Assembly (NCBI GenBank): GCA_047601445.1
Contig: JASGJH010000001.1
Location: 2,080,001-2,144,000 of the forward strand
Direction: 5' to 3'
DNA length: 64,000 bases
Origin: Myxococcales bacterium
GTDB taxonomy: Bacteria; Myxococcota_A; Polyangia; Polyangiales; DASUME01
In this document: positions 12,001-21,000 of the stretch, piece after piece
Layout: the number at the start of each line of letters is the position of its first letter
How positions within the stretch are numbered: the stretch's first letter is position 1
Made by a program: the position numbers

Positions 12001-15000
12001 GGGCAACATGTCCTGATACAGGTCCACGCGCGCAGCCCAGCTCTCCTCGGCGGCGTCGAGCCACGGCTGCGTGGCCTGCGGCTCGATCATCGGAACGGAC
12101 ATCATCCCGGAGCGTCGCGGTGGACGCGAAGGGCGGCTGCCTTGCAGCTCGTCCAGGATGGAACTCAGCTCGTCGGCCAAGTGGTACGCGTCGGAGAAGC
12201 GCTCCCCCGGGTGCTTGGCGAGCATGCGCAGCACGAGCGCGTCGATCTTGCCTCGCAGCGGCAGATCCGGGCGCAGCGACGACGGTGGACTCGGCGGCAC
12301 CTGCAGGTGCTTGAGCACCACCTCCGGGCTCGGCCCCTCGAACGGCAAACTGCCCGTCAGCATCTCGTAGAGCACGCAGCCGAGGGCGTACTGGTCCGCC
12401 TGACCCGTCAACGGCTCGCCTCGCGCCTGCTCCGGCGCCAGGTACTCGGGGGTGCCGAAGACCTTCCCGGTGGCGGTGAGCCGGTGTTCGCCGACCACCT
12501 TTGCCAAACCGAAATCCAGCAGCTTCACGAAGTCCGCGCCGCGCCGCTGCTGTACGAAGACGTTGTCGGGCTTGACGTCGCGGTGGATCACGTCGAGTTC
12601 GTGGGCGCGTGCCAGCGCCGTGGCCAACTGGTGGGCAATGGTCAGCGCTCGAACCGGCTCCAGCGGGCCCGCTCCGATGACCTTGCCGAGCGGCTCGCCC
12701 TCCAGGTACTCCATCACCAGGAAGACCAGACCATCGGAGGTCTCGCCAAAGTCCGTGATGTCGATGATGTGCTCGTGATCGATGCGGTTGGCGGCTCTGG
12801 CTTCGCGCAAGAAACGCTCGCGTGCAGCCGGATCACGGGCATAGCGGGGTGACAGGAACTTGAGCGCGACATCGCGGCCCACCAGCTGATGGCGACCTCG
12901 ATAGACCGCCCCCATGCCGCCCGTGCCGATTAACTCGGACACCACGTAGCGCCCGCCGATCGTGCGACCGACAAGGGGATCGGGCAGCGGCTCGAGCTGC
13001 GTGCCGTCGAACGGACAAACCCGTGCCTCAGATGTGAATCGTGATTGGCAGACCGGGCAGTGCTGCAACGGATCCCCCTCAAACACGTCGAGCGAGCGAA
13101 GACGATAGCGCTCATGGGAATGCCCGAGCAACTGAGCAGGAGATTCTTGACTTTTCCGATGGGTGAACTAGGGTTGTCCGGTTTTCGTGAGGTCTGCGTG
13201 AAGCTCTCCAGCCGGGGTCGCTACAGCGTCCGTGCCATGTTCGATATCGCGTTCCACGGCGAAGGCGCCGCGGCGCAGATCAAGGACATCGCCGAGCGCC
13301 AGGGCATCCCGCCGCGGTTCCTGGAGCAGATCTTCCAGGACCTGAGGCGAGCAGGCCTGGTCTCGAGCAAGCGCGGCCCCCGCGGCGGCTACCACCTCGC
13401 CCGAGCTGCCCGTGAGATTTCGGTGGGCGAAATCGTGCGCGCTGTGGAAGGGCCCCTGAGCCTGTGCGCCGGGGAGGAAGACGCAGCAGATAGCGGCGAC
13501 GTCGCGAGCATCGGGGTCACCGAGAACATGTTCCGCGACCTATCCGCGCGCGTGGCCGCCTGTTTCGACCAGGTCACGCTCGAGGACCTCTCGGACCAGG
13601 CCCAGCGCCAAGGTGTTCGCCGGGGCAATCCCGGCGGCTATGTCTACGTCATCTAGTAGAGTTCGAACCCCATGACAGCTCCGGTCGTCGACAACGTCCT
13701 CTCTCTCATCGGCAACACGCCCCTGGTGCGCCTGCGACGGGTCGTGCCGGAAGGCGCCGCGGCGGTGTGGGCGAAGTGTGAGCAGCTGAATCCCGGCGGA
13801 TCGGTCAAAGACCGCATCGCGCTTGCGATGATCGAAGCGGCGGAGCGCGACGGCAGACTCAAGCCCGGGGACACGGTGGTGGAGCCCACCAGCGGCAACA
13901 CCGGCATCGGTCTGGCCCTGGTGTGCGCGCGCAAGGGCTACAAGCTCGTGCTGACCATGCCCGAAAGCATGTCGCTCGAGCGCCGCGCGCTGCTGGAGGC
14001 CTATGGGGTCGAGATCGTGCTCACGGCGGCCGAGCGCGTGATGGAAGGGGCCATCGAGGCCGCCCAGGAAATCCTGGCCGAGCGCAAGGCCTTCATGCCG
14101 AGTCAGTTCGACAACCCCGAGAATCCGAACGCCCATCGCCGGCAAACGGCCCAGGAGATTTTGGCGGCGCTCGAGGGCGAACCGCTGCACGCGCTGGTGG
14201 CCGCGGTGGGCACGGGTGGAACCGTAAGCGGCGTGGGCGAGGAGCTCAAGGCCAAGCACCCGAGCCTCAAGGTGATCGCTGTGGAGCCCGAGGCGAGCCC
14301 CGTGCTGGCGGGCGGCGAGCCAGGTCCCACCAAGATTCAGGGCATCGGCGCAGGCTTCGTCCCGGGCAACTTCCATCACCAGGTGGTGGACGAGATCCGC
14401 CAGGTGGCCGATCGAGATGCCTACGAGATGAAGATCCGGCTAGCCAAGGAAGAAGGCCTGCTGGTGGGTATCAGCGCCGGCGCCAACGTGCGCGTGGCCG
14501 CGCAGCTGGCCAAGGAGTTGGGCCCCGGAAAAACGGTGGTCACGGTGCTGTGCGACACCGGTGAGCGCTACTTCAGCCTGGACGAGTACTTCAAGTGAAC
14601 GCAACGGCACAGACAGTCACGAGCGCCGCGGATGGACGCGGCGTGCTGGTGATCGGAGTCGGCGGACTCTCGTCACCCGCGCTGTCCGTGCTGGTGGAAA
14701 GCGGCGTGCGACGTCTGACGCTGATCGACGCGGACCGCGTGGACGAGACCAACTTGCAGCGCCAAACCCTGTTCTCCGAGGCCGACGTTGGCCGCCCCAA
14801 GGTGGAAGCCGCCGCGGAACGCCTGCGCTCGCTGAGCCCGGAGCCGCTGCAGCTGGAGCTCATCGAGGGCCGTTTTGCCCCCGAAAACGCCCGGGACGTC
14901 GTGGCGGGACATCGCTTGGTGCTCGAAGGAGCCGACAACTACGCCACCAAGTTCCTGGCGGCGGACACCGCCAAGCTCGAAGGACTATCGGTGGTACAGG

Positions 15001-18000: not shown

Positions 18001-21000
18001 TCTGCACGGGGGGCACCGCGGGCCTGTATCGCCCCAACAACCCGGGCATGGCCTCTCACCGCATGTGGTACTCGCCCTTCAACACGGGCGCCGGCCTCGC
18101 GATGGGCATCCGCAGCGGCGCGGAGATGACGAGCTTCGAGTTCCGCTTCATCCCTCTGCGCATCAAGGACGCAATCGCTCCGACCGGCGAGATCGCACAG
18201 TGGCTCGGCGCCAAGCAGATCAACGCGCGCGGCGAGGCCTACCTGGACAAGTACTACCAGCACCTCGGCGGCTCTCGCATGACCACCCAGGATCGCCTCT
18301 ACGCGACGCTGCAAGAGAAGATGGCCGGTCGTGGACCTTGCTATCTGGACATCAGCAACGTGGACCCGCGCAAGCTGGAGGGCACCACGCGCTCGTACCT
18401 CTCGATGGCACCGCCGGCTGCGATGCTGCTGCAGGACGAGATGTACTACGGGCGGGGCGGCGGCTCGATGGCGCCGGTGGAAATCACGGGCAGCGAACCG
18501 CACGTCGTCGGCGGCCACGGTCTCTCGGGCTACTGGGTCGACGTGTCGCGCAAGACGACCCTGCCTGGTCTGTGGGCGGCGGGTGACGTGGCCGGTGGCT
18601 CGCCCAAGAAGTACGCGTCGGGAGCCTGGGCCGAAGGCGTGCTGGCGATTCGCGACATGATCGACGACGTGCGCACGCGGAAGTCTGTGGAGCTCGACGA
18701 GGAGCAGATCCTCAAGGAGCGTGACCGCGTGTTCGCGCCGTTCGAGGACAAGCCCGGCACTTCACCGCGTGAGCTGGAGGAGCGCCTGCAAAAGGTGATG
18801 GACGAGTACGCCGGCGGCATCAGCCAGATGTACATGTACTCGGAGGGCGAGCTGAAAATCGCCGAGATTCACCTCAAGCGTCTCGAGCAGGAGTTCAACG
18901 CCATCACCGCGGGTAGCTTGCACGAGCTGTTGCATGCTCACGAGTTGATGGATCGCGTGACCGTGGCGCAGACGCTGGTAGCTCACATGCTGCATCGCCA
19001 GGAGACACGCTGGCACTGCTATCAGGAGCGTGTGGACTATCCGCAGCGCGACGACGCTCGTTGGAGCGTATTCGTAAACTCGGTTCGCAAGGGCGACCGT
19101 ATCGAGATGGTGGAACGGCCGGTAGAGCGCGCGAATGTCGAAGTCGTGCTGCCAGAGCTCGCCGATGGCGCCATCATTCGTCACAGCACGAGTTCTTCGG
19201 AGTAGTGGTTCGCGCGCCGCGTCGCGTGAACGCAGGAGGAGCAGATGGGTATCTTCGTAGACGAGAACGTGTGCAACGGCTGCGGCATCGCCGAGGAGCC
19301 CATGTGCGTGCGCGACTGTCCCGGCGACCTGATGATCCTCAAAGAGAATCGTAAGGCCATCATCCGGGACAACCGCGACTGCTGGGACTGCGCCGCGTGC
19401 GTGAAAGTGTGTCCGACTCAGGCCATCGCCATGCAGCTGCCGAGCTCGGTGATCGTGCGAGGCGTCAAGCTCAAGGGCCGCGCCATCAAGCACAAGACGA
19501 CTTGGAAGCTCAAGCTACGCGACGGCACGGAGCGCGCTTACGAGACGCCCAGCACGGGCAACGCTCCGTTCAACCCGAGCCTGTAGCGGGCGATGTCGAT
19601 CGCCGGGCAGGCCACACACGGGGCCTGCCCGTAGCGCGGCGGTCGCGACGGCCCCAAAGCAAAACGGCGAACCCACTGGGTCCGCCGTTCCTGCACACGT
19701 ATCGAGCCCGCTCGGGGCTCGCTCGCTCAGCCCTCGGAGGCCGCCGCAGCAGACACGTGCGAGCGGTTGCTCTCGCGGAGGCGGGCCTTCTTGCCCTCGA
19801 GACCGCGCATGTAGTAGAGGCGCGAGCGGCGAACGCGGCCGCGGAAGCCGATTTCGATCTTCTCGATGCGAGGCGAGTTGATGGGGAAGATACGCTCCAC
19901 GCCAACGCCGTAGGACACCTTGCGCACCGCGAAGGTGGCGCCGACGCTGCCCTTGGACTTGCGAATGACGGTGCCCTGGAAGACCTGAACGCGGTCCTTC
20001 TCGCCTTCGCTGATGCGGAAGTGGATCTTCACCGTGTCACCGACGCGGAAATCCGGGAGGGTACGAACCTGTGCCTGCTCGATGGCGGCAATCTGAGGAA
20101 TGGTGCTGGCCATGGCCTGGTTTCTCCGTCCGACACACGCGCGAGTCGCGGCGTGAGTGATCAAGGTGACGCGCGCGGGTCTACGGCGCGAGCGACATTA
20201 GGGCCGCCTTCTTGACATGCCCGATGGGGGGCGTCAATCGCCCGCCGGAACTTGGCGAGTTTCCAGGCTCTTGAGCGGTTCCAAGAGCCAAAACTCCGGC
20301 GTTTCTCAGGATGCGCCCAGATCTCCGAACAGGCGGTCGAGAATAATTGCGCAAGCAGCGCGCACGGACAGGTGGTTGTAGGTGCCGGGGCGAATCGGGG
20401 GAAGCGCCAGATCCGCCTGCTCCAGGACTTCCTGGGCCAACCCGTGGCCAGTCCCGAACAGGAGCAGCCAGGGGCGGTTCTCGCGGGCCATCTCGGCCCG
20501 CACTTCGCGGAAGGGGGTCGCAGCCACCCCACCCGGCAAGCGGGCTGCCGTGACCACCAGGCGCGGCCGCTGGCCGTGTGCGGCCTCGATGGCGGCAATG
20601 GTGGCGGCAATCGAGTCGATGGGCCGGGCCAGGGACAGGGCGACCCCGCGCTCTGGTACGCGCCGCTTGCCGCTGCCCTCCACCCAGTGCTCGAGGATCT
20701 TGTCCACCAGCGCCCGCTGGGCCTCGATGGGCGTGATCACGTAGTAGCCCGCGAGACCGAACGAACGGCTCGAGCGCGAGATGTCGTGCACGTCGAGGTT
20801 CGTGACGGCGGTGGTCACGATGTTGCCCTCGCGGTCCTTCACCGGATAGTGCACCAGGCCCACGTAGATGGGCGCGCGCTCGGGGGCCCCGCGTTCCCGC
20901 TCGAGCTCGCTCAGCAGCGTGCGGTCCTCGGCACTCAGTGAGGCCTGCCCGAAGAGATCCGGGCGCTGGGTCCGCGTGCGCCGCAGCACCTCCTTGCGGC

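Follow-up and report, generated by a model that had tools for sequence, protein, structure and literature searches.

The window analysed here, 64,000 nucleotides of a Myxococcales genome, carries at positions 13114–19586 a tightly packed operon of nine genes, all on the plus strand, with intergenic gaps of -11 to +39 nt and overlaps at four junctions; gene calls together with Pfam and NCBIfam profile matches confirm the extent and gene content given in a preliminary description. The first gene encodes an Rrf2-family regulator (13114..13656; Pfam Rrf2 127 bits, NCBIfam rrf2_super 123 bits) that scores 109 bits against the IscR model and 90 bits against the CymR model, each under the model's own cut-off, and is probably a CymR/IscR-like cysteine or sulfur regulator of the operon. 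An Rrf2 gene likewise heads the operon in 21 of the 22 related loci that extend that far upstream, none being seen in L031. There follow CysK, O-acetylserine sulfhydrylase A (13672..14598; TIGR01139 cysK 407 bits, cut-off 351), a ThiF/MoeB-type adenylating E1 of 249 amino acids (14595..15344; Pfam ThiF 175 bits, from profile position 23), a CysO-like ThiS/MoaD sulfur carrier of 91 amino acids with the C-terminus AIAGG (15377..15652; Pfam ThiS 61 bits), a degenerate ThiF-like protein of 124 amino acids with weak NCBIfam matches only (15667..16041), a CysM-type cysteine synthase B (16038..16964; TIGR01138 cysM 342 bits, below the cut-off of 394; cysKM 329 bits) and a Mec-like JAMM/Prok-JAB metallopeptidase (16954..17451; Pfam Prok-JAB 61 bits). 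The last two genes encode an AprAB-like alpha (FAD) subunit of 585 amino acids (17448..19205; NF005331 738.3 bits, cut-off 557, as reported earlier) and a 113-residue beta subunit, a 2x[4Fe-4S] ferredoxin (19245..19586; 74 bits to 8A8O_C).

The central genes resemble the CysO-CysM-Mec system of Mycobacterium tuberculosis. The carrier, with its GG end, has M. tuberculosis CysO as its best solved relative (3DWG_C, 88 bits, E 3e-24), and the genes for CysM and for a JAMM peptidase lie side by side. The CysM-type protein, which matches E. coli CysM at 236 bits and M. tuberculosis CysM at 206 bits in the PDB, is presumed to be the partner of the CysO-thiocarboxylate; the peptidase contains the ExnHxHx7SxxD motif and has homologues in 132 of the 151 genomes of the order. 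The E1 is without a rhodanese domain, a feature shared with the type 4e operon of Iyer, Burroughs & Aravind 2006 (PMC1779556), and also without the N-terminal RYxRQ helix; 16 homologues all keep its DxDxV..NLQRQ motif and both CxxC motifs unchanged. The 124-residue protein has its best NCBIfam match (E 2.8e-8) to the N-termini of MoeB/ThiF models, begins with the motif RYARHLLLPEVGxxGQERL and is present in 15 related loci, with R13, G21, G24 and Q25 invariant. A modelled complex of this protein with the E1 scored 0.92, the best control 0.00, and we propose that the E1 may be a heterodimer in which this protein is the small subunit, with the arginine finger, next to the catalytic subunit. Unlike the E1 of the M. 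tuberculosis CysO pathway and of operon types 4c-4e (PMC1779556), that of the window thus appears to be split in two.

All 24 distinct loci from Polyangiales, whose AprA is 67-92% identical, have the order cysM-JAB-aprA-aprB, which upholds the synteny noted earlier. Among families that have no reductase pair, four loci contain the same operon with JAB as its last gene, directly convergent on rplS. In what is a new arrangement, the pair forms a cassette appended 3' to a CysO operon under presumed Rrf2 control whose other genes are conserved throughout the order; the genes of the pair may well be co-regulated with those upstream.

Family identity of the putative reductase pair

The preliminary description placed the flavoprotein and ferredoxin with the dissimilatory AprA/AprB type, an assignment that does not hold. 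The flavoprotein scores 354.7 bits against the aprA model TIGR02061 (cut-off 641.75), and the ferredoxin, which covers positions 1-104 of the 132 in the profile, scores 67.9 bits against the aprB model TIGR02060 (cut-off 135.65); both scores lie below the equivalog cut-offs, and the pair is not of the dissimilatory AprBA lineage but belongs to the AprAB-like clade represented by NF005331. Matches to M. gigas AprA and AprB do exist as described (3GYX_A 232 bits, 3GYX_B 57.8 bits), but the best solved match of both subunits is a PAPS reductase of Methanothermococcus thermolithotrophicus that resembles dissimilatory APS reductase (PDB 8A8O, hereafter MtPAPSR; Jespersen & Wagner 2023): the alpha subunit reaches 628 bits (E 1e-187) with 8A8O_A, the true APS reductases 2FJA (306 bits) and 3GYX_A lying far behind, and the beta subunit also scores higher with 8A8O_C than with 3GYX_B. 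MtPAPSR, an archaeal enzyme, is the sole characterised member of the family and was shown biochemically to be a PAPS reductase (PMC10322725).

The likeness extends to single residues. The alpha subunit keeps counterparts of N74, W234, R265 and H398, so that the catalytic residues are shared with MtPAPSR, and the short beta subunit has the same eight cysteines, in two [4Fe-4S] motifs, and a tryptophan (Trp47), and is without the C-terminal tail of true AprB. A tree of 133 rows, its deep nodes unsupported, places the 25 rows from Polyangiales together in a single clade (support 100) that nests within the AprAB-like group, away from canonical AprA. The AprAB-like group was named, and proposed to be assimilatory, in 2021 by Neukirchen & Sousa (DiSCo, PMC8477390), who surveyed it in Clostridia, Negativicutes, Deltaproteobacteria, Nitrospira and Archaeoglobi; theirs is the same kind of pair, with a tail-less AprB-like subunit and a neighbourhood rich in sulfur-assimilation and ThiF/TusA genes. 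The window's pair is a member of this already described assimilatory family, not an enzyme of respiratory sulfate reduction.

Canonical AprBA (A. fulgidus 1JNR/2FJA, M. gigas 3GYX) shares with it homologous subunits, FAD, two [4Fe-4S] clusters and the same proposed N5-sulfite chemistry. Its genes, however, run aprB-aprA instead of aprA-aprB, its Glu141 and Gln145 are replaced by Arg and Ser in the window enzyme, and its cluster has Qmo, sat and dsr partners, of which the window pair has none. Two genomes of the order do carry a genuine dissimilatory-type cluster, made up of dsrAB-like genes, aprB-aprA, three HdrA-like genes and sat; canonical AprB in the order is 144 amino acids long, against 113 in the window.

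Distribution of the pair and of CysH

Besides CysD and CysNC, the genome has genes for a stand-alone CysC, for a NirA-like sulfite reductase, accompanied by a DUF934 gene, and for a CysQ-like protein (192 bits, below the cut-off of 229); a search for sat found none. Its single PF01507 match is CysD (contig 599297-599977) and the CysH model NF002537 has no match, in agreement with the earlier report that a CysH-type reductase is missing. Within the order, a window-type pair occurs in 30 of 151 genomes, 18 of these 30 being without CysH, a pattern that is new; CysH is present in 102 of the 121 genomes that have no pair. The host genus has CysH in 0/10 genomes and the pair in 9/10, and the pair goes with absence of CysH in five further families. 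These data support the claim that the pair is the only candidate here for the step from activated sulfate to sulfite. Replacement is not obligatory, since family f3 keeps both (12 of 15 genomes), a limit already recognised. CysH-type thioredoxin-dependent PAPS/APS reductases carry out the same metabolic step and are mutually exclusive with the pair in most families of the order, yet they are unrelated to it in sequence and fold and differ in cofactors and electron donor.

Outside the Polyangiales, cysD(N) or sat lies beside the pair, on the same strand, in 64 of 77 loci, and Pfam scans of eight loci found sulfate transporters, cysDN, small sulfite reductases, APS kinase and sat adjoining it. 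ThiS/ThiF/JAB genes are beside the pair in 24/77 loci outside Myxococcota, where TusA is also a recurrent partner. The assimilatory role is therefore older than the myxobacteria, and neither a recruitment for assimilation within them, as suggested earlier, nor a link to ThiS/E1/JAB genes peculiar to Polyangiales can be maintained; operon type 4e already joins ThiS/E1/JAB-type genes to sulfate-assimilation genes (PMC1779556). Compared with types 4c/4d of that survey, the cysteine-synthase operon of the window is similar, with the addition of the AprAB-like reductase and minus the rest of the sulfate pathway.

Discussion

We consider it probable that the pair, of the MtPAPSR family, works as an assimilatory PAPS reductase of the ferredoxin type, with FAD and [4Fe-4S] clusters, and replaces thioredoxin-dependent CysH in this genome. 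APS would be made by CysDN and converted to PAPS by the stand-alone CysC; electrons from a low-potential donor, for which no gene is encoded near the pair, would reach the alpha-subunit FAD by way of the two beta-subunit clusters and Trp47, and the reduced FAD would attack the sulfur of PAPS, giving PAP and sulfite. The CysQ-like phosphatase would remove PAP and the NirA-type sulfite reductase encoded elsewhere would yield sulfide, which CysK could use or which could be loaded on CysO after its adenylation by the E1 of the operon; cysteine would then be built on CysO by CysM and released by the JAMM peptidase.

The preliminary description had the pair reduce APS. A role at the activated-sulfate step is supported, but PAPS is the likelier substrate, because an AprAB-like member has been shown biochemically to be a PAPS reductase: for MtPAPSR its authors report rates of 0.114 umol/min/mg for PAPS and 0.007 for APS, a preference of about 16-fold, and name K120, R121 and S122 as the residues of PAPS specificity (PMC10322725). 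The specificity loop of the window's alpha subunit reads RG-R-A-S, with R, A and S at these three positions. Arg121 occupies the position of Lys120, and Ser123 corresponds to Ser122, where true AprA has Gln145, which would clash with the 3'-phosphate. Ser at this position accompanies APS kinase, a new correlation that points to PAPS: the kinase is present in 5/5 genomes with a Ser-type enzyme outside Polyangiales and in each of the 32 Polyangiales genomes that the order-wide pair search matched, and in only 4/17 genomes with an Asn/Asp-type enzyme, several of the genomes compared being MAGs and possibly incomplete. The link rests on few independent events, since the Ser state needs only three changes on the tree.

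The same assimilatory enzyme might instead reduce APS directly, CysC serving sulfation reactions only, which we regard as unlikely yet deserving of weight. The loop with R, A, S in place of K, R, S has lost the R121 equivalent, and APS kinase, present in 130/151 genomes of the order whichever reductase they have, does not discriminate within it. Moreover, of 12 genomes of Bacillota in which cysDN adjoins the pair, 10 give no APS-kinase match at E<=1e-10 and all lack a CysH above its cut-off, so that many family members must use APS if their pathway works. Against this, these kinase-less genomes have Asn instead of Ser at the specificity position, as do most Bacillota members, all Ser-type genomes tested have the kinase, the nearest characterised enzyme favours PAPS, and in a sister lineage (L094) the kinase gene cysC lies directly upstream of the pair.

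It seems very improbable that the substrate is not free (P)APS but, for example, a sulfur intermediate bound to CysO or to another protein. Such a substrate would explain the translational coupling of the pair to the Mec peptidase gene, with its 4-nt overlap and a place after mec that is invariant in 24/24 loci, and the recurrent ThiS/ThiF/JAB/TusA link in other phyla is consistent with it, but the pair retains the residues that serve catalysis and line the adenine side in APS/PAPS reductases, most family members have cysDN or sat and no carrier genes nearby, and the genome would otherwise have no enzyme for the sulfite-forming step. Oxidative operation (sulfite to APS/PAPS, as detoxification; sulfite oxidation was raised earlier) or a place in dissimilatory sulfur metabolism would fit the homology to reversible AprBA and some metagenome studies in which aprAB of Myxococcota is taken to mean sulfite oxidation (PMC12345210). 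It is the least credible reading, since the characterised homologue gave no measurable reverse reaction (PMC10322725), the genome has neither sat nor, among its NIR_SIR matches, a DsrAB-type gene, no Qmo/HdrA-like neighbour of the pair was found, and the true dissimilatory-type cluster of the order is very different.

If the pair is a PAPS reductase, its role would parallel that of MtPAPSR, which is assimilatory in a genome that has no canonical reductase for the step. The settings differ: MtPAPSR belongs to a methanogen and is encoded with ATPS/APSK/PAPP, with a DHH-type phosphatase for PAP, whereas the window pair follows CysO/CysM/Mec genes, presumably depends on a CysQ-type phosphatase, and belongs to a bacterium equipped for aerobic respiration by its gene content (three COX1 homologues). 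In its regulation the operon, headed by an Rrf2 gene, recalls C. acetobutylicum CA_C0103-CA_C0105, genes of the CymR regulon under Rrf2/CymR-type control (PMC4845359) that probably include the same kind of pair.

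Operon structure and gene identities

The operon considered here consists of nine plus-strand genes at 13114–19586, with hardly any spacing between them; it is called from gene spacing and synteny, consensus promoter and terminator scans of 12800–20400 having returned nothing above shuffled sequences. As identified by Pfam and NCBIfam scans, the genes encode an Rrf2 regulator (13114–13656; Pfam Rrf2, 127 bits), CysK (13672–14598; TIGR01139, 407 bits, over the cut-off), a ThiF-type adenylating enzyme (E1) of 249 amino acids without a rhodanese domain (14595–15344; Pfam ThiF, 175 bits, from profile position 23), a ThiS/MoaD sulfur carrier of 91 amino acids with the C-terminus AIAGG (15377–15652), a 124-aa ORF with no Pfam match (15667–16041), a CysM-type synthase (16038–16964; TIGR01138, 342 bits, below the cut-off of 394), a Prok-JAB peptidase (16954–17451; Pfam Prok-JAB, 61 bits) in whose translation the motif HSHx7SxxD is seen by eye, and, as the last two genes, a flavoprotein of 585 amino acids (17448–19205) and a ferredoxin of 113 amino acids with eight cysteines (19245–19586). 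Overlaps of 4 or 11 nt occur at four junctions, the longer one joining the JAB gene to cysM, and the remaining gaps are 14–39 nt. The gene identities and coordinates given in a preliminary description of this locus are all reproduced. Immediately downstream, convergent and on the opposite strand, lie rplS, a trmD fusion and rimM.

Several features of the CysO pathway are present, namely a GG-ending ThiS-fold carrier, whose top PDB match is the Mycobacterium tuberculosis CysO (3DWG_C, 88 bits), and a JAMM peptidase with an intact metal motif adjoining cysM. A PDB ranking of the synthase (236 bits for the E. coli type and 206 bits for the M. tuberculosis type) does not separate the two types of CysM. 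Operons joining ThiS-like, E1 and JAB genes to a cysteine synthase have been described as types 4c and 4d (Iyer, Burroughs & Aravind 2006, PMC1779556).

The reductase pair belongs to the AprAB-like family

The flavoprotein (alpha, AprA-like) matches NF005331 over profile positions 4–553 of 563 with 738.3 bits, in agreement with the 738 bits first given for it and above the cut-off of 557. The models of the canonical subunits accept neither protein: the flavoprotein scores 354.7 with the aprA model TIGR02061 (cut-off 641.75), and the ferredoxin (beta, AprB-like) scores 67.9 with the aprB model TIGR02060 (cut-off 135.65; positions 1–104 of 132). By far the best PDB match of the flavoprotein is chain A of 8A8O (628 bits, E 1.3e-187, query 3–564), the alpha subunit of 'PAPS reductase from Methanothermococcus thermolithotrophicus' (MtPAPSR), with the APS reductases of A. 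fulgidus and M. gigas at 306 and 232 bits, respectively; the best match of the ferredoxin is chain C of the same entry (104 residues; 74 bits, E 1.1e-19). Canonical AprB has 150 or 166 residues in PDB chains and 144 in two canonical clusters found within the order (L040 and L041, below), whereas the beta subunit in the window has 113 and lacks the C-terminal tail that wraps around AprA, and only about the first hundred residues of the true AprB chains align with it. Canonical AprBA is, moreover, encoded in the order aprB-aprA with QmoABC/HdrA-like, sat and dsrAB partners, in contrast to the window pair, which has none of these and adjoins rplS-trmD-rimM. With both equivalog cut-offs missed, the pair is not of the dissimilatory AprA/AprB type to which the preliminary description had assigned it, but a member of the AprAB-like/MtPAPSR family (NF005331). 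The catalytic residues Asn74, Trp234, Arg265 and His398 align with N58, W207, R238 and H357 in the window alpha subunit, in (nearly) invariant columns, and the beta subunit has C10, C13, C21, C25, C46, C49, C52 and C56 together with the relay tryptophan W47; all of these are common to canonical AprBA and the AprAB-like clade and therefore do not discriminate between them.

M. thermolithotrophicus is without a canonical PAPS reductase. Jespersen & Wagner (2023, PMC10322725) expressed and crystallised the 'APS-reductase-like' pair of this methanogen, and from their assays report 0.114 umol/min/mg with a full PAPS-making coupled system, 0.007 without APS kinase (that is, with APS), and no measurable reverse reaction. 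Within the NF005331 family, PAPS-dependent sulfite formation with a low-potential donor has been measured only for this archaeal enzyme. Two years before, the DiSCo paper had provided models for 'AprA-like' and 'AprB-like' paralogues, the latter without the terminal tail, and had listed the pair in 63 organisms, the majority from Clostridia, with others from Negativicutes, Deltaproteobacteria, Nitrospira and Archaeoglobi; a role in assimilation was proposed, and sulfur-assimilation genes, along with TusA, ThiI/F and IscU, were found to be over-represented in the neighbourhoods (PMC8477390). In Clostridium acetobutylicum the CymR-regulon operon CA_C0102–CA_C0110 includes an APS kinase, an 'adenylylsulfate reductase, subunit A', a ferredoxin, cysD and cysN (PMC4845359, Table 3). 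The family and its assimilatory role (2021, 2023), as well as the general association of carrier operons with sulfate-assimilation genes (2006), are already in print. Our literature searches found no paper on an AprAB-like pair in myxobacteria. What this analysis adds is the clade in myxobacteria, the way in which it is joined like a cassette to the CysO operon, its pattern relative to CysH, a Ser/Asn correlation with APS kinase and an apparently split E1.

Sulfate assimilation in the genome

The genome is a single contig of 9.5 Mb, estimated to be 98.7% complete. The sole PAPS_reduct domain found by six-frame searches is that of CysD (NF009214, 510 bits) and the CysH model NF002537 has no match, which bears out the CysH absence proposed at first; no sat, no Dsr-type gene and no second NF005331 protein were found in the genome either. 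The other genes found include cysNC (744 bits), a gene for a NirA-type sulfite/nitrite reductase of 554 aa that falls below every NCBIfam cut-off and is followed by a DUF934 gene, a best CysQ-like gene at 192 bits (cut-off 229), and an intact, strong stand-alone APS kinase gene, cysC (288 bits; contig ~674020–674619). Three homologues of heme-copper oxidase subunit I indicate a capacity for aerobic respiration. The assimilatory role first proposed for the pair is supported, the function of every protein in the window, this pair included, being inferred.

The kinase domain fused to CysN in CysNC (contig 600100–601986) reaches only 69 bits (cut-off 139) and is degenerate, its match falling in two broken stretches. 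One strong APS-kinase match accompanied by one of 28–37 bits was also seen in at least 10 of 17 relatives searched.

Distribution of the pair and of CysH in Polyangiales

Among 151 genomes of the order, including the genome under study, NF005331 is matched at E<=1e-50 in 32, two of which carry a canonical cluster instead, leaving 30 with the window-type pair (in three of these only as fragments at contig ends). CysH is over its cut-off in 114 of the 151: it was found in 12 of the 30 genomes with the window-type pair and not found in 18, and found in 102 of the 121 without the pair and not found in 19, counts that are descriptive and constitute no test since the sampled genomes are related. One genome flagged as unpublished (G122, from family f22, which lacks the pair and has CysH, APS kinase and the JAB gene) is counted in these figures, and removing it lowers the class with CysH and without the pair by one. 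All 12 genomes with both the pair and CysH fall in family f3, where they make up 12 of the 15 genomes. Of the 18 with the pair only, nine come from the window's genus, which is represented by ten genomes; the others are both f4 genomes, all three f7 genomes, the only ones sampled from f9 and from f12, one f14 genome and an f3 genome that is incomplete. In the tenth congener (G069, 89% complete, in 830 contigs) neither the pair nor the JAB gene was found, and an assembly gap is likely there.

The two canonical clusters, L040 (G046:C324, 3650–17671) and L041 (G068:C106, 305–12182), contain two dsrAB-like genes, aprB (144 aa) before aprA, three HdrA/Qmo-like genes and sat, and neither CysH nor the JAB gene was found in the searches made of these two genomes. 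They may be binning errors, and in either case they offer an internal picture of a dissimilatory-type locus within the same order.

A two-gene cassette at the 3' end of a conserved operon

The genes for CysM, the JAB peptidase and the AprA-like and AprB-like subunits occur in this order on one strand in all 24 distinct Polyangiales loci, no two of which are identical over the last 500 residues; in five of these loci, from f4 and f7, the E1 and the 124-aa gene are missing from the operon. The JAB peptidase has a far wider range than the pair, being present in 132 of the 151 genomes; in two large families that lack the pair, it was found in 23 of 23 and in 21 of 23 genomes. In four loci from such families the operon lies at the same site, convergent on rplS-trmD-rimM, and runs Rrf2, cysK, ThiF, cysO, small gene (in three of the four), cysM and JAB, where it ends. 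Downstream of the pair, the rplS neighbourhood was recovered in 14–18 of the 24 stretches examined, the window's own included. The same operon thus occurs at one site with and without the pair, and the pair is a unit of two genes that some loci have and others lack at the 3' end of the CysO operon, itself old and inherited vertically. We considered, and reject, a recent acquisition of this entire operon by horizontal transfer, as it adjoins rplS-trmD-rimM in families with and without the pair. Either the pair was gained once, with several later losses of CysH, or it was present early and then lost.

The family outside Polyangiales

A search of 1.84 billion representative proteins returned 258 at E<=1e-30, among them about fifteen full-length representatives above 400 bits. 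With an alignment of these representatives, 80 loci were fetched from one-genome-per-species contigs, three from Polyangiales and 77 others, at 42–52% identity, from Bacillota (the majority), Fibrobacterota, Spirochaetota, Actinomycetota, Nitrospirota, Planctomycetota, Thermodesulfobacteriota and unclassified bins. Among the same-strand genes detected by tblastn, cysD or sat is found in 64 of the 77 loci (cysD in 59, sat in five), a sulfite-reductase-like gene in 31, an APS kinase gene adjacent to the pair in four, and ThiF together with the JAB peptidase in 24, accompanied by ThiS in 23 and by TusA in 21 of those 24; for eight loci, Pfam scans of 60 ORFs bore out these identifications. An apparent absence of JAB/CysO genes from the loci of other phyla, obtained by tblastn with the window's proteins as queries, was discarded as an artefact of sensitivity, the 24 loci having been recovered with Bacillota queries. 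One complete genome (L087) serves as an example, with, in this order, a sulfate ABC transporter, the AprA-like and AprB-like genes, cysD, cysN, a small sulfite reductase, TusA, ThiS, ThiF and JAB. These counts make the assimilatory setting and the link to protein thiocarboxylates properties of the family and not myxobacterial inventions; the recruitment to assimilation within a myxobacterium envisaged earlier does not hold, the pair already standing beside cysD or sat in most loci from other groups.

None of these neighbours was found in ten of the 77 loci, of which one is truncated and nine come from a Desulfovibrio/Desulfovirgula/Peptococcaceae sub-group, with an HdrA/MvhD-like gene following the pair in four of the nine. 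In four loci from Desulfovirgula and Peptococcaceae (L097, at 10104–12841, L099, L114 and L115) the genes that come after the pair encode a flavo-FeS protein of the HdrA/MvhD(FlpD) type and another ferredoxin, with no cysDN or sat near the pair; these added genes may be a dedicated electron-donor module, or may reflect a different function of this sub-group, which reads K/R-W-D at the specificity residues discussed below. The ThiS-like carrier beside the L087 operon (13800–14006) ends in GGGQP and not in GG, and presumably needs trimming by the adjoining JAB peptidase before use.

A FastTree phylogeny, a quick method run here with no bootstraps, was built from 133 rows comprising the window protein, 24 Polyangiales relatives, 73 products of the other loci of at least 480 residues, 31 representatives and four further Polyangiales proteins (two canonical-type and two AprB-less paralogues). 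The 25 Polyangiales rows form a single clade with local support of 100 within the AprAB-like group, its sister being L094 from an unclassified bin (support 96). Four canonical AprA rows are placed elsewhere and other flavoproteins fall outside (support 95–100). Support between the AprAB-like sub-groups is 0–49, too low to fix their branching order.

APS or PAPS as the substrate

MtPAPSR keeps the catalytic residues of AprA and differs in the loop 104–123, where Lys120, Arg121 and Ser122 are named by its authors as conferring PAPS traits; Gln145 of AprA would clash with the 3'-phosphate of PAPS (PMC10322725). In the window enzyme the three columns hold Arg, Ala and Ser: the Ser is shared with MtPAPSR, the Lys has undergone a conservative substitution and the Arg has been lost. 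The columns of the A. fulgidus APS-binding residues Glu-A141 and Gln-A145 hold Arg119 and Ser123. Read from the alignment of all 133 rows, the three specificity residues are R-A-S in all 25 Polyangiales rows, N-R-N in most Bacillota (31 rows; x-R-N in others), R-W-N in Nitrospirota, K-W-D in the Desulfovibrio-type group and R-W-Q in three of the four canonical AprA rows, with L040 and L041 reading EG-R-W-Q at the specificity loop. The column of AprA Glu141 is Arg in 111 of 117 rows, 16 distant flavoproteins being set aside.

The third of these residues (Ser123 in the window enzyme, Ser122 in MtPAPSR) tracks whether the genome encodes an APS kinase. Bacillota genomes with an Asn- or Asp-type enzyme have an APS kinase (E<=1e-10) in two of 12 cases and a CysH over the cut-off in none of the 12; with a further five Asn/Asp-type genomes, two of which have the kinase, the total is four of 17. 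All five genomes with a Ser-type enzyme outside Polyangiales have an APS kinase, its gene adjoining the pair in four. A strong APS kinase is likewise present in all 32 Polyangiales genomes matching NF005331 (17 of 17 in a first pass). Within the order the kinase was rejected as a discriminator, being uninformative at 130 of 151 genomes whatever their reductase. The Ser state requires only three changes on the tree, so that the correlation rests on few independent events; a number of these genomes are bins of unknown completeness; and the window enzyme has Ala where MtPAPSR has Arg121. Within these limits the correlation suggests that the family probably includes assimilatory enzymes of two kinds, using APS (Asn) or PAPS (Ser), and that the window enzyme is of the PAPS-using kind. 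APS as the substrate, as first proposed, is probably wrong, and we regard PAPS as the more likely substrate.

A possible split E1

The operon ThiF (14595–15344) is without the N-terminal RYxRH helix of its intact relatives, such as the Bacillota E1 of L087, which begins '...LERYSRHIILSEVGVKGQKKL'. The 124-aa protein (15667–16041) begins '...RTRYARHLLLPEVGLVGQERL' and carries the N-terminal helix absent from the operon ThiF, followed by an apparent Rossmann fold remnant and a conserved 'AVEAIK' helix. Its NCBIfam matches are weak and confined to MoeB/ThiF N-termini (best E 2.8e-8), and its ThiF-like nature is drawn from these and from the motif likeness to the intact Bacillota E1; a profile-profile comparison of its family with that of the operon ThiF was not significant, a relationship being scored as improbable. 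By tblastn the small gene is found in 15 of 17 related loci with the E1, in none of the five f4/f7 loci without it and in three of the four loci without the pair.

A complex prediction for the E1 and the 124-aa protein, using both alignments, scored with very high confidence, and the best control scored nil. Among solved complexes 116 of 157 scored this high, and among mismatched pairs two of 215, counts that hold only roughly because our own alignments were used. At least 94% of contacts agree among the runs, and the partner pLDDT is high. In the model, small-protein residues 9–20 would face the part of the E1 that contains NLQRQ and the glycine loop, and the 82–101 helix would pack on the E1 171–220 helices. 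The model supports binding of the two proteins, and as ThiF/MoeB homodimers have been solved, its score may reflect likeness to those. In MoeB-type dimers and the heterodimeric eukaryotic E1s, an arginine of the N-terminal segment reaches the partner's ATP site. The modelled pair may accordingly be an asymmetric heterodimeric bacterial E1 in which the 124-aa protein is the arginine-finger subunit.

Implications and neighbouring genes

Taken as a whole, we can offer only tentatively, and as the less probable outcome for all its parts jointly, a scheme in which one position (Ser versus Asn/Asp, the AprA Gln145 column) would sort the AprAB-like family into PAPS- and APS-using enzymes; a group of aerobic Polyangiales would have taken the PAPS type as a cassette behind mec, most of its families showing no CysH among the genomes searched; the route would be linked to ferredoxin and not to thioredoxin; and the E1 would be a eukaryote-like asymmetric heterodimer of a catalytic ThiF and a 124-aa arginine-finger subunit. 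The link between Ser/Asn and APS kinase predicts substrate choice across the family. The family, so far characterised in one strictly anaerobic methanogen, is now extended to bacteria with genes for aerobic respiration, and such hosts raise the questions of the pair's electron donor and oxygen tolerance. The order also provides a natural experiment on how a central assimilation step is replaced, as some of its operons carry the cassette and others do not, and its genomes may have CysH, the pair or the two together.

The NCBI model is named 'adenylyl-sulfate reductase', and KEGG-style aprA/aprB calls would count the pair among markers of dissimilatory sulfate reduction or sulfite oxidation. Myxococcota are abundant in soils and sediments, where such calls would misassign an anabolic enzyme. 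A sediment study reads aprAB-sat transcripts of Myxococcota as sulfite oxidation, and either type of aprAB may be meant in its text (PMC12345210).

Two features of the downstream region complete the description. On the minus strand, a 435-aa ORF at 20306–21613 joins trmD to another SAM-dependent RNA methyltransferase domain (PF09936), and at the related locus L126 the two halves of the fusion match 2.6 kb apart. About 3.4 kb downstream of the operon, a plus-strand gene at 22960–24597 encodes a 545-aa protein with a Cytochrome_C554 (multihaem) domain.
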